In this document: in pieces, positions 29,029 through 31,830 of the stretch
Layout: every line of letters starts with the position of its first letter
How positions within the stretch are numbered: position 1 is the first letter of the stretch
Assembly (NCBI GenBank): GCA_964396845.1
Contig: CAYNGH010000002.1
Coordinates: forward strand, 17,760-81,759
DNA length: 64,000 nucleotides
From: an uncultured bacterium
Lineage (GTDB): Bacteria; Vulcanimicrobiota; JAJTBE01; CAYNGH01
Reading direction: 5' to 3'
Program-made: the position numbers and the translations under genes
The notes under the pieces: model-generated
Told to the model about the DNA's origin: nothing
The model's database searches: none
What the model saw: only the letters and a program-made list of their open reading frames with translations

Positions 29029-30630
29029 CTATCTGTTCGCCTTGCTCTGGAGTTCTTTTTCCCAGCGGTTCAGATATTCTTCCTTCTGCTGGAGGCGTCG
29101 CTTGTCGGATTCAACCTGCTGGCGGGCACGTTCCACGTCCCGGTTGAGCTGTTCATAACGGTTCCGCTCATTTCTGGCGTTATCCCTTTCCCGGGATGCC
29201 TCAGACCGCAGGGATCGAGCCGTTGAAAGCTCACGGTCTGCTTCCCTCATCTTGCGGTCTGCTTCTCTTTCCTTTGTGTCGGCTGAATCTATCTTCCGGT
29301 TCCATTCTTTCTCCAGGGGTTTCCACTTGGCTTCCACCTTAGCGGCCACTTCCTTGTCGATGTTCTTGTTGCGATCGTCAAGTTTTCTTTTGATTTCCTG
29401 CATACGGCTGAACTTATCGGCATAATCGGTTTCCAGCTCCACCTTGCGGTTGTCAAACAGCTCCTGGGCGCCGGTTTCAATGTGCTGGTCAACTTCCTTT
29501 TCCTTTTTGTCAACCTTGGACTGCCAGTCGGTGAGATGCTCTTCTTTCTCGTTGAGCTTGCCTTCTTTTTTGAAGAGATCCGTGGCTTTTTCCTTATACA
29601 TTTCATCGGACTTGGTGTCGATGATCTGGTCAAGATTGGCTTCCTTGGTATTTATCCGTTTCTCCTCGGAATTGAGGAAGCTGTCCCGCTGATCCTGCTC
29701 TTTTGATCTCTTGGAATGGAGATCCTTGGCCTGGGATATTTCATTCTGAAGCTTATCGGCAGCGGACTTGAGATTCTCTTCCTTGGTGGACAGCAGTTCT
29801 TCTTTTTTCTGAAGCTCTGCAAATTTCCGACCCTGGAAGAGTTTGTTGCCCACCCATTTGATGCCGTCTTTCACCTTGTCGATGGCAGACCATGCTCCCA
29901 CGTATCCGCCGACTCCGAAGACCCCGGCCCCTACAGCTGCACCGATGGCCGCCGGCCCGGTTATAGCCGCCAGAGTAACCCCTGTGGCCAGAAGACCAGC
30001 TATGGTAGCGCCCGCCGCGGCGACTCCTGCGCCGGCAACGGCTCCGCCCACCAGTCCCGAGGCTGCGCCCACACCGGCAACCAGAGTGGAAAGAAGTCCC
30101 GGCTTCTTGGGAGCTTCAAGGCTTTCATCTCCGCTTTTCGGCTTGCCTGTGGGGGCTCCCAGAATCTTCCGGACACCGGTTCCCAGGGATCCCGCTAACT
30201 TGTTTCCTGTCTTGAAAAGGCCATGGCCGGTTATAAGAGATCCTGCCGCCATGCCGATTTTTCCCATGGTGCCTACTGTGGAAAAGGTGGTGCCGATTCC
30301 TGCCAGAAGACCGCCACCGGTAACCGCAACGATGGCCGGGGCCAAGGCTCCTCCGACGATTCCCAGGGCTATGGCTCCGCCGGCAGCACCCACATAAAGC
30401 CCCGCAGTTCCTAAAGCTCCTCCCGCCAGAACTCCCGCAGTGCCGGAAATCCTATCGGAGAACTTGATTACCGCCCGTTTCCAGCTGGACATCTCCTTGG
30501 GCTTATCCTCAACGGATCCTTTGAATCCGTCTTTGGTATCGATTTTTGCCCCTTCGTCCTTCTTCACCGGGGCCTTTTCCATTTTCTGGGGGATGTTTGT
30601 ATCAACACCCATTTTCTTAATACCGTCCAC
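29029..30630 (-). CDS. Glycine-zipper protein C: conserved N-terminal module plus ~250-aa charged coiled-coil tail (unknown family)
   Basis: 533 aa; GTG start with GGAGG SD. N-terminal 280 aa paralogous to protein D; C-terminal half K/E/R/D/Q-rich with heptad character. Confidence 0.65.
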   Translation of the reverse strand: MDGIKKMGVDTNIPQKMEKAPVKKDEGAKIDTKDGFKGSVEDKPKEMSSWKRAVIKFSDRISGTAGVLAGGALGTAGLYVGAAGGAIALGIVGGALAPAIVAVTGGGLLAGIGTTFSTVGTMGKIGMAAGSLITGHGLFKTGNKLAGSLGTGVRKILGAPTGKPKSGDESLEAPKKPGLLSTLVAGVGAASGLVGGAVAGAGVAAAGATIAGLLATGVTLAAITGPAAIGAAVGAGVFGVGGYVGAWSAIDKVKDGIKWVGNKLFQGRKFAELQKKEELLSTKEENLKSAADKLQNEISQAKDLHSKRSKEQDQRDSFLNSEEKRINTKEANLDQIIDTKSDEMYKEKATDLFKKEGKLNEKEEHLTDWQSKVDKKEKEVDQHIETGAQELFDNRKVELETDYADKFSRMQEIKRKLDDRNKNIDKEVAAKVEAKWKPLEKEWNRKIDSADTKEREADRKMREADRELSTARSLRSEASRERDNARNERNRYEQLNRDVERARQQVESDKRRLQQKEEYLNRWEKELQSKANR

Positions 30631-30950
30631 AGTTGCACCTCCATAATATGTTTAAAAGTATTTTCCTAATATACATCATCTTATTATGACAGATGGGTCA
30701 GTCATTATCAATACTTCCGATGTTAACAAAATGTTACCAGATGCCAATAAACCAGAGTATTATCATACATGAACAAAGAGTTTCAAGTAAGCATGACTGG
30801 AAAGAAACATACACCCTGTACATGAGAGTGGAAACCAGATAAAAACAACCTTTTATGCTGGAATCATAACCCCGGCTGTTGCCCCTTGGAGATGAATCGC
30901 TGGGGAAGCAGAACTGTTGGATATAAAGACAAAGATCAATAAGTAATATC

Positions 30951-30976
30951 AAAAGGGCACCCCGTTTGGGATGCCC
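30951..30976 (-). terminator. Rho-independent terminator after glycine-zipper gene D
   Basis: Minus-strand RNA reads GGGCAUCCC-AAAC-GGGGUGCCC (9-bp stem incl. one G-U) followed by UUUUGAUAUU. Confidence 0.65.
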
Positions 30977-30999
30977 TGATATGACAATATTTTTACTGG

Positions 31000-31830
31000 T
31001 TATTTTGCTTCTTTGGCTTCCTGTTTTGGCTCACTTTTAACAAACTTGCCGATGAGCTTCTTTGCCCCGGACTTCACTTTATCGATGGCAGACCATGAAC
31101 CGCTGAATCCGCCGATTCCAAAAACCGTGGCCCCCACCGCAGCGCCGATGGCTGCAGGCCCTGTAATGGCCGCCAGGGTAACTCCCGTGGCCAGAAGCCC
31201 GGAAATAGTAGCCCCCGCTGCCATGACTCCAGCTCCTGTAATGGCTCCGCCGGCGACTCCCGCAACGGATCCCACCGCAGCGACTCCCAATTCTATCAGG
31301 CTGGGCTTATTCGGCACTCCCACGTCCCCTGCTTCTTCTTTCTGGGAAGGGGCTCCCAGGGTTTTTCTAACCCCAGTGCCTACAGCTTCAACAGTCCCCT
31401 TGCCCGCCTTGAACATGCCGTATCCCGTCAGGACTGAACCGGTCACAAGACCCGCCTTGCCCACCAGACCTGCAGTGGCAAAGGTCTTGCCGATGCCCGC
31501 TAAAACTCCCGTAGTGGTTACCGCGGCAACTGCCGGCCCCAGAGCTAATCCGGTAATACCCAGGGCAACGGCACCGCCGATGGCCCCGACATAAAGCCCT
31601 GCTGTTCCCAAGGCTCCGCCTGCTACCATTCCCAGGGTTCCCGTCAGGCGATCCGAGAACTTAATAATAGAACGTTTCCATCCCGCCATCTCCTTTGGCT
31701 TTGACTCCACCGAGCCTGACATCTTGTCAGTGGTGTTGATGGATGCTTCTTCCTTGACCGAAGGGTTGGCTTCCGCCTGCCGGGTCAAGGGTATATTTTG
31801 AGGGGTGTTTATCTTTCCTATGGAATCCAT
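31000..31830 (-). CDS. Glycine-zipper protein D (paralog of C N-terminal module)
   Basis: 276 aa; GGGAGGA SD; shares KPKEMAGWKRSIIKFSDR, GTAGLYVGA, GLLATGVTLAAITGPAAIGAAVGA and WSAIDKVK blocks with C; followed by a strong terminator. Confidence 0.65.
   Translation of the reverse strand: MDSIGKINTPQNIPLTRQAEANPSVKEEASINTTDKMSGSVESKPKEMAGWKRSIIKFSDRLTGTLGMVAGGALGTAGLYVGAIGGAVALGITGLALGPAVAAVTTTGVLAGIGKTFATAGLVGKAGLVTGSVLTGYGMFKAGKGTVEAVGTGVRKTLGAPSQKEEAGDVGVPNKPSLIELGVAAVGSVAGVAGGAITGAGVMAAGATISGLLATGVTLAAITGPAAIGAAVGATVFGIGGFSGSWSAIDKVKSGAKKLIGKFVKSEPKQEAKEAK

Follow-up and report, generated by a model that had tools for sequence, protein, structure and literature searches.

We examined a 64,000-nucleotide (64-kb) stretch of contig CAYNGH010000002.1 from an uncultured bacterium of the Vulcanimicrobiota (GenBank assembly GCA_964396845.1), hereafter the window, whose minus strand carries four genes, D, C, E and F, downstream of a four-subunit pyruvate:ferredoxin oxidoreductase operon (32011-35036). 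A first-pass annotation had described C and D as the products of a recent duplication of a membrane-embedded glycine-zipper module, one copy of which is fused to a charged coiled coil. Both open reading frames (ORFs) are present on the minus strand where that annotation had placed them. Here, we show that 1) C and D share a Gly/Ala-rich, hydrophobic module of approximately 265 amino acids (aa), 2) they lie with E and F in a cluster conserved at 27-37% protein identity, and 3) a common element precedes every transcription unit of the system that we examined, across lineages whose proteins are 30-50% identical. C, E and F are closely spaced behind one promoter, and D is considered monocistronic because it has its own promoter-like site and a terminator (Table 1).

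E and F encode orphan membrane proteins. As read from its sequence, E comprises an N-terminal coiled coil followed by two successive units, each made of a Gly-zipper transmembrane (TM) segment, a hydrophilic domain of ~77 aa and a second Gly-zipper TM segment, with invariant GxxxGxxxG runs at residues 89/93/97 and 341/345/349/353; the protein thus appears internally duplicated. The product of F contains ~20% Gly and three hydrophobic blocks. Sequence comparison detected no significant similarity of E or F to D, and hhalign, applied to the question of whether E or F is built from the C/D module, returned matches of only 22-27 columns, which do not demonstrate homology.

The kinship of C and D was examined against the background of their biased composition. 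BLASTP with compositional adjustment aligned the two proteins with 167 identities over 280 positions (60%, E=5e-99), and all four identical blocks cited in the first-pass annotation were found in this alignment. The Smith-Waterman score was 801, compared with 120 ± 14 (maximum 155) for 300 regional-composition shuffles, a difference of 47 standard deviations (SD). Shuffles alone gave 34% identity (maximum 45%) against the 62% observed, so C and D lie well clear of the 30% identity below which the annotation would have dismissed the blocks as compositional, a line which was itself too lenient because composition alone yields 34%. The notion that the C/D likeness is purely a matter of low-complexity Gly/Ala tracts, in ORFs that form no meaningful family, draws on these shuffled identities of ~34% and on the flooding of word-indexed searches by low-complexity candidates, but it is at odds with an alignment score 47 SD above the shuffles, a ratio of nonsynonymous to synonymous substitution (omega) of 0.06-0.18, syntenic orthologues, and profile matches down to E=1e-125 with specific invariant positions. 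We therefore regard it as practically untenable, the BLASTP, shuffle and selection results having already refuted it.

The duplication was not recent, contrary to what had been proposed. Synonymous sites between the C and D modules are saturated (Nei-Gojobori dS ~1.7, omega 0.18), and the omega of 0.06-0.18 over both copies indicates purifying selection; the dN/dS comparison suggested along with the original claim thus speaks against recency. The same codon is used at only 68 of the 159 identical degenerate residues, and the longest identical nucleotide run spans 16 nucleotides (nt), so that neither recent duplication nor recent gene conversion has taken place. Gene conversion was rejected on the same two counts as the origin of the identical peptide blocks, which are held by purifying selection. 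Furthermore, gene order is preserved on the related metagenomic contig L001, where D' (340 aa), C' (535 aa), E' (363 aa) and F' (338 aa) adjoin the same oxidoreductase and glycosyltransferase genes as in the window. Module identity is 86% for C/C', 77% for D/D' and 63% for C/D; the C-D split is therefore older than the speciation that separated the window from L001. Regarding copy number at orthologous loci, which the first-pass annotation had recommended checking, L001 holds both copies and loci elsewhere hold one to three paralogues. Orthologues of D were recovered as P0002 (75%) and P0003 (68%). C and D are 58-62% identical to each other, compared with 34-48% between either and the next lineage out, and they form a clade with full neighbour-joining bootstrap support (100/100). 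D thus represents a lineage-specific, tail-less copy of the C module, of intermediate age. We noticed that D' (L001 10001-11023) is 64 residues longer than D and carries an additional hydrophobic, Gly/Ala-rich segment (MLAVAAPALAVGIATGCLPLIIPSALF...) at its end; the C-terminus of the tail-less form is thus variable.

The module consists of 24-26% Gly and 19-20% Ala. A hydrophilic leader of ~60 residues comes first, without a signal peptide, and is followed by two hydrophobic blocks of 55-75 residues each (approximately 64-119 and 176-250), in which Kyte-Doolittle values over 19 residues rise to 2.2. An AlphaFold2 model of D, built with an alignment of 53 family members, places helices at residues 49-93, 97-119, 122-157, 178-213 and 219-264, with 3-5-residue turns between the helices of each hairpin, a hydrophilic leader at 1-48 and a charged linker at 158-177; confidence in this model was moderate (predicted local distance difference test, pLDDT, 64.7; predicted template modelling score, pTM, 0.40). 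The proposed embedding in a membrane is thus backed by hydropathy as well as by predicted helical hairpins. The term glycine zipper holds in part: raw counts of GxxxG and small-xxx-small motifs were not above those of composition shuffles, but near-invariant glycines are spaced i, i+4. Across the 53 members, invariant or near-invariant glycines with this spacing occur at G187/G191/G195/G199, G82/G86 and G229/G233, and glycine is invariant in the alignment columns at D positions 85/86/94/194/195/233/244. Comparison of the two halves of the module with hhalign, made to see whether they arose by internal duplication, gave a probability of 84% (E=7e-6), a match of which compositional bias is a possible cause. 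The N-terminal basic box, which had been suspected of being a targeting or interaction motif, is conserved in the narrow clade of the window only, not family-wide, and AlphaFold2 predicts that the first long helix (H49-93) begins with it on the cytoplasmic side; it is therefore best seen as an ordinary positive-inside juxtamembrane segment. The extreme N-termini show a different kind of likeness, in that C, D and E (from 30630, 31830 and 28992 downward) all start MD(S/G)I(K/G)(K/N), and those of distant family members start M(K/Q)I(N/D/T)..., followed by Ser/Thr/Asn/Pro-rich sequence and an (E/A)PKD(G/S)F motif. This common leader may be a targeting signal, a chaperone site or a mere preference in translation initiation.

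As had been described, the module occurs both with and without a long charged helical tail. The tail of C spans 268-270 aa, of which 49% are charged and one is proline, and AlphaFold2 models it as three helices at residues 272-331, 333-422 and 424-532 (60, 90 and 109 residues; pLDDT 72-90). These long, uninterrupted charged helices agree with the first-pass annotation, but its designation of the tail as a coiled coil does not fit the observed periodicity. The hydrophobic period peaks at 3.65-3.67 residues (fraction of shuffles reaching it ≤0.0005), and power at the heptad period of 3.5 resembles that of shuffles (0.32 of them reach the observed value). The mean spectrum of 30 family tails likewise peaks at 3.65, with ~9 times the power expected by chance. 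These predictions describe a long helical arm, amphipathic and with a nearly straight hydrophobic stripe, not a classical heptad coiled coil; it could form a hendecad-like or non-supercoiled bundle or a helix lying on a surface. Self-comparison of the tail revealed no 11-mer sequence repeats. At locus L012, where the orthologue of C is split in two, the tail is 47% identical to that of C and the module 36-42%, the tail being the better conserved of the two between lineages.

The regions upstream of C, D, C' and D' align along CTG(G/T)T(A/T)ACA-N3-(T/A)GTT(A/T)ACA, a TTGAT -35 box, a 17-18-nt spacer and CATCTG(T/C)(C/A)ATAAT, and three of the four also have the leader TAAACATATTATCGGAGGTGCAAC in common. 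The element proper, with the consensus tGTTAACA-N3-tGTTAACA, is located directly upstream of the -35 box. Exactly two matches occur in the 64-kb window, where 0.01 would be expected. Elsewhere, it stands before the first module gene in L002, L005, L006, L011, L012 and L013, and versions with a single mismatch are found at this place in L003 and L004; a paralogue of E in L012 (4354-5265) has the element upstream as well. Since a like element and promoter precede both C and D, the duplication carried its own regulation along. Judging from this arrangement, the element is probably the operator of a putative regulator, and the whole gene set looks like a dedicated regulon. Tandem-heptamer operators are exemplified by the CtsR box, which the element resembles in layout and not in sequence.

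Table 1. Positions of the C-D-E-F cluster, its regulatory features and corresponding features at other loci
Feature	Sequence	Position	Strand	Description
Gene D	window	31000-31830	minus	ORF, 276 aa; tail-less Gly/Ala-rich hairpin module; 60% identical to C
Gene C	window	29029-30630	minus	ORF, 533 aa; GTG start, ribosome-binding site GGAGGTG
Gene C, residues 1-265	window	29836-30630	minus	Leader and Gly/Ala-rich hairpin module
Gene C, residues 266-533	window	29029-29835	minus	Charged, all-helical (predicted) tail; conserved W-x-ELxKKE start
Gene E	window	27901-28992	minus	ORF, 363-aa orphan membrane protein; start 36 nt past C stop codon
Gene F	window	26838-27818	minus	326-aa orphan, last gene of cluster; ATG at 27818 supported by alignment
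Upstream element of D	window	31909-31928	minus	CTGTTAACACTATGTTTACA, two GTTAACA-like 7-mers 11 bp apart
Upstream element of C	window	30721-30740	minus	CTGGTAACATTTTGTTAACA
Putative D promoter, sigma-70-like	window	31871-31900	minus	TTGATT, 18-nt spacer, AATAAT, within CATCTGCAATAAT; from promoter scan
Putative C-E-F promoter, sigma-70-like	window	30683-30711	minus	TTGATA, 17-nt spacer, CATAAT, with TG; conserved in L001
Predicted intrinsic terminator after D	window	30954-30977	minus	10-bp stem with 7 GC pairs, then T-run
Element copies	L001	9890-9908, 11217-11235		
Element copy	L002	8962-8980		
Element copy	L006	300-318		
Element copy	L011	8063-8081		
Element copies	L012	4241-4259, 8095-8113		
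Element copy	L013	8092-8110		
Split C	L011	8192-9978		First hairpin unit / own leader, second unit and tail
Split C	L012	8220-9973		First hairpin unit / own leader, second unit and tail
Split C	L013	8220-9979		First hairpin unit / own leader, second unit and tail

An exhaustive profile search of 1.84 billion representative proteins recovered 75 clusters of the module family at E≤1e-3 and 49 at E≤1e-10. Word-indexed searches with D or a 16-sequence profile gave only 4-6 matches, and the exhaustive search was needed because low-complexity candidates swamped the word index. A narrower pattern (A1) was found at three genome loci, two metagenome loci and no viral loci. Relatives carrying organism names comprise three from Eremiobacterota/Vulcanimicrobiota, one 'uncultured Synergistia' and one 'Firmicutes', and the cluster is so far known from metagenome-assembled genomes (MAGs) only. 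Our literature searches on Eremiobacterota together with coiled-coil, and on Vulcanimicrobium, found nothing about this family. Protein lengths are bimodal, with tail-less forms of ~260-310 aa and tailed forms of ~480-720 aa. Half-modules also occur, namely the first hairpin unit alone (120-187 aa) and the second unit with a tail (~420 aa) or alone (~140 aa); alone, the second unit also serves as the N-terminal anchor of otherwise unrelated repeat proteins of 536-1482 aa. In P0059 (L009 10001-14449), P0061, P0062 and P0066, this second unit is joined to ~130-aa repeats (...LPPGxxR...FG...AL...) without Pfam match, and one such gene in L009 lies near ankyrin and transglutaminase/TPR genes resembling those of the window. 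Tail-less forms are polyphyletic, D grouping with C (100% bootstrap) and the short form of L003-type loci falling elsewhere in the tree.

The one to three module paralogues of a locus usually occur alongside E and F. The Vulcanimicrobiota loci L003, L004 and L007 have the order short form, long form 1, E-like, long form 2, F-like, and in comparisons of L003-type loci with the window, E is 30% identical (2e-21), F is 37% identical (3e-18) and C matches over its full length (5e-15). E homologues were found beside module genes in L001, L003, L004, L011, L012 and L013. Loci L011-L013 have two overlapping genes, of 172 aa and 411-419 aa, in place of C, with E and F after them; E is 52-58% identical to that of the window (47-59% in this lineage). 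The split genes show that each of the two units of the module can stand on its own. We also observed that, at L011, which belongs to a 7.6-Mb contig, a small ORF and a PIN-domain gene (11461-12073), apparently a toxin-antitoxin pair, are placed between E and F. Another arrangement is seen at L019 (GCA_016199555.1, 194-7109), in a high-GC genome, where two long-form paralogues (P0067 and P0018) are translationally coupled, anciently diverged, and sit behind a 1319-aa protein with one TM segment and long coiled coils. Genes flanking the cluster are housekeeping genes that differ between lineages.

By sequence or fold, C, D, E and F could be assigned to no described family; this novelty is one of relationship, not of mechanism, and conserved orphan membrane operons are not rare in candidate phyla. 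C and D gave no match in Pfam or NCBIfam, and the 53 family members matched nothing in Pfam beyond generic coiled-coil noise. Sequence searches of the PDB with the module profile, the tail and the E profile returned nothing below E=0.06, and fold searches with the module or the tail gave non-specific matches only and no fold relative. PADLOC and an Rfam scan of the window were likewise without match. The only PHROGs match was a weak one between residues 196-303 of C (~29722-30045), which reach from the second hairpin into the beginning of the tail, and the uncharacterised family phrog_7187 (E=1.2e-4, 22.6 bits). This match is probably compositional because no relative was detected by tblastn against 50,697 phage records or in IMG/VR.

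The first-pass annotation had likened C and D to PspA/IM30-like coiled coils and to the logic of caveolin and flotillin. These comparisons failed every membership test that we ran and survive only as a loose functional analogy. PF04012 (PspA) matched neither C nor D at E≤0.1 and only one of the 53 members below threshold (E=4.7e-4), and caveolin and Band_7/SPFH were absent from the Pfam scans of C, D and the 53 members. PspA and IM30 are peripheral proteins without TM segments that adopt the ESCRT-III helical-hairpin fold, and on both points an assignment of C and D to this group was rejected. What the cluster may have in common with PspA/IM30/Vipp1 (bacterial ESCRT-III) is long charged helices at the cytoplasmic membrane and, possibly, inducible expression.

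Closer architectural parallels are found among proteins of other kinds. Chlamydial Inc proteins have a hydrophilic N-terminus, a bilobed hydrophobic domain of two helices and a short loop, and a long alpha-helical C-terminal region (PMC3048545). The C/D type has these parts as well, but with two bilobed domains: the hydrophobic blocks (64-119 and 176-250) and the predicted helices within them (49-93/97-119 and 178-213/219-264) agree with the definition of the Inc hydrophobic domain. Both families are confined to few lineages and are without enzymatic domains. In contrast, no sequence relationship exists between them, and Inc proteins are specific to Chlamydiae, a phylum of obligate intracellular bacteria with an injectisome, while the host of the window appears to be a motile, free-living-type anaerobe, the named relatives include Eremiobacterota/Vulcanimicrobiota MAGs, and the sequence that we surveyed holds no injectisome. 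Moreover, the system described here forms one conserved cluster with polytopic partners (E and F), a dedicated operator and strong purifying selection. In the mitochondrial inner-membrane fission proteins Mdm33/CCDC51, a hairpin or two TM segments, whose GxxxG zipper is required both for function and for self-assembly, are combined with long coiled coils that organise membrane shape (PMC11668171). The resemblance lies in membrane hairpins with a GxxxG zipper joined to long helices, and the differences in the placement of the coiled coils, which flank and separate the TM segments in Mdm33/CCDC51 but are replaced by a solely C-terminal tail in C, and in the absence of homology; moreover, Mdm33/CCDC51 are eukaryotic organelle proteins. 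Mic10 and Mic60 of MICOS follow a comparable membrane-shaping logic.

Among bacterial proteins, the glycine-zipper lipoproteins (SlyB/PCP; Gly-zipper_OmpA, Gly-zipper_YMGG, Gly-zipper_Omp, Rick_17kDa_Anti) also have Gly-rich hairpins with small residues at i, i+4, and their oligomerisation within a membrane leaflet may be counted as a further likeness to the hairpins described here. C and D, however, gave no match to PF13436, PF13441, PF13488 or PF05433, have no signal peptide or lipobox, and exceed these families two- to threefold in the length of their hairpins. The score of F on PF13436 is 15.1 bits (cut-off 27), and E homologues reach E=0.0088 at best. EzrA and the N-terminus of RNase Y resemble C in having an N-terminal membrane anchor and a cytoplasmic helical arm of several hundred residues, but theirs is a single TM anchor, the match to RNase_Y_N was weak and sub-threshold (E=0.039), with matches far below threshold in general, and no likeness in fold was found.

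In our view, the proteins of the cluster act neither in catalysis or transport nor as secreted toxins. A membrane-organising role is possible, judging from architecture only, and our tentative preference is for a reading, no firmer than a working model, in which C, D, E and F form an inducible heteromeric complex of the cytoplasmic membrane, serving as a scaffold that organises or stabilises it. The hairpins would insert with both ends cytoplasmic, as suggested by the absence of a signal peptide and by Lys/Arg-rich flanks, and small-residue faces would mediate the packing of C and D on each other and on the Gly-zipper helices of E and F. Reaching into the cytoplasm as a long helical rod or bundle, the tail of C would serve to recruit, space or tether some other component at the membrane; D, having no tail, would co-assemble with C and govern how densely the arms stand. 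E would supply two small domains on the opposite side of the membrane from the arms, and a putative transcription factor would turn on the whole set under a specific condition. This reading draws on the homology of C and D and the selection acting on them, the hydropathy and predicted hairpins, the i, i+4 glycines, the conservation of the cluster, the split and tandem forms in L011-L013 and L019, the use of the second unit as an anchor, the confidently predicted and better conserved tail, and the common operator and promoter. The surrounding genes, which are ordinary housekeeping genes without secretion, phage or defence genes, are in line with such a scaffold.

Several observations weigh against this scaffold reading. 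The pLDDT of the module is only moderate (65 in D) and falls below 50 within the full-length model of C. Genomic co-occurrence cannot tell a complex from a pathway, and E and F are absent near the L019 paralogues, so that the four-protein set is not universal. The 3.65-residue period suits surface-lying amphipathic helices as well as a projecting rod, and a dedicated operator, which suggests conditional expression, would be no less expected of a stress response than of a scaffold. A more ambitious version, of which we are rather doubtful, sees the cluster as a lineage-specific machine of membrane architecture, i.e., a regulon-controlled lattice of glycine-zipper hairpins (C and D) docked to polytopic E and F, in which the mix of tailed and tail-less subunits tunes the spacing of arms of ~15-40 nm, as an independent bacterial invention of the hairpin-plus-long-helix logic of MICOS, Mdm33 and Inc. 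The polyphyletic tail-less copies and the split and fused modules would then reflect selection on subunit stoichiometry.

Alternatively, the cluster could protect membranes under stress in the manner of PspA/Vipp1 or of apolipoprotein and LEA proteins, with the hairpins as anchors and the tail helices lying on the cytoplasmic face, where they would seal or stabilise the bilayer on induction. Periods near 11/3 residues are typical of lipid-surface helices such as those of apolipoproteins, perilipins, alpha-synuclein and group-3 LEA proteins, and the family-wide period of 3.65, the narrow hydrophobic stripe on a tail that is ~49% charged, and an upstream operator consistent with an inducible response all point in this direction. 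We nevertheless consider it unlikely, since the tail shows no 11-mer repeats in self-comparison, its core hydrophobics amount to only ~20%, which is low for a lipid-binding face, C has no PF04012 or apolipoprotein match in Pfam (one of 53 members being sub-threshold for PspA), and D, E and F would be left without an obvious role.

Two further possibilities appear improbable. If C and its relatives were exported, membrane-inserting proteins akin to chlamydial Inc or type III translocators, an N-terminal signal would direct export, the bilobed domains would insert into a second membrane, and the tail would engage targets at that site. Such a role would accommodate the Inc-like architecture (bilobed hydrophobic domains and a helical C-terminal region), the Ser/Thr/Asn/Ile/Pro-rich N-termini of the family (e.g., MKINATTTQTLPV and MQINKTNLVKSS), the MD(S/G)I start of C, D and E in the window and the ankyrin-repeat proteins encoded nearby. 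It is difficult to reconcile with the lack of injectisome, type VI (T6SS) and type VII secretion system (T7SS) genes in the window and the fetched loci, with the gene content of a free-living, motile, chemotactic anaerobe, with a single conserved cluster per locus under strong purifying selection as opposed to large, fast-evolving Inc repertoires, and with the resemblance of E to a polytopic, resident membrane protein. We give as little credence to a channel or pore former, in which glycine-zipper helices would oligomerise into an ion pore, as in VacA, MscL-type zippers, T6SS glycine-zipper effectors or holins, gated or oligomerised by the tail. Glycine zippers are over-represented among homo-oligomeric channels, the module and all hydrophobic segments of E contain conserved GxxxGxxxGxxxG runs, and there is a weak, sub-threshold likeness to Gly-zipper, Tim17/Romo1, XhlA and bacteriocin Pfam families and to the TM peptide of a PAAR effector; however, every Pfam match is far below its gathering threshold, no immunity-like gene, toxin-delivery context, lysis cassette or phage relative was found, and a 270-aa tail retained at 47% identity within a four-gene cluster would be unusual for a simple pore former.

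All four proteins are without curated family, solved structure or fold relative, and yet they are conserved, constrained and furnished with their own cis-regulatory element, in poorly studied uncultured lineages whose named members are mostly Eremiobacterota/Vulcanimicrobiota. The GTTAACA-N4-GTTAACA element offers a concrete starting point from which to trace the regulator, the condition that induces the set and the other genes of the regulon. If the scaffold reading is true, the cluster would represent a new bacterial solution to membrane organisation and a natural case of assembly tuning by tailed and tail-less paralogues; if, instead, Inc-like export is true, it would imply an unsuspected lifestyle of cell-cell interaction in the phylum.

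Judging from its gene content, the window is an ordinary piece of chromosome of a motile, free-living-type anaerobe. It also encodes flagellar FliF, a large chemotaxis operon, MutS, MutL, CdaA, a YbbR-domain protein (CdaR-like), YchF, a MatE transporter, and TPR and ankyrin-repeat proteins. FliF was the only relative of injectisome, T6SS or T7SS genes in the window and the fetched loci, and no phage or defence genes were detected in the window. Four further ORFs of 265-368 aa in the window are without Pfam match (36797-37594, 41042-41869, 41969-43060 and 43249-44355); the third of these, of 363 aa, was considered as a paralogue of E and rejected on comparison, being unrelated despite its equal length. 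Ankyrin-repeat proteins are encoded at 23531-25156 (plus) and 60700-61263 (minus) in the window, at 2829-3656 in L001 and at 5766-6398 in L009, and a 541-aa ankyrin protein has a central, highly charged helical insert of ~100 residues (EKRRELSRERVS...KLQKQK) between its ankyrin blocks. Within the chemotaxis operon (8250-20429, minus), adjacent ORFs of 623 and 651 aa resemble a split CheA, one with Hpt, P2 and CheW and the other with HATPase_c and CheW, and are accompanied by a 650-aa protein with three CheW domains, a 646-aa HEAT-repeat protein, CheR, CheB and a chemoreceptor (MCP).

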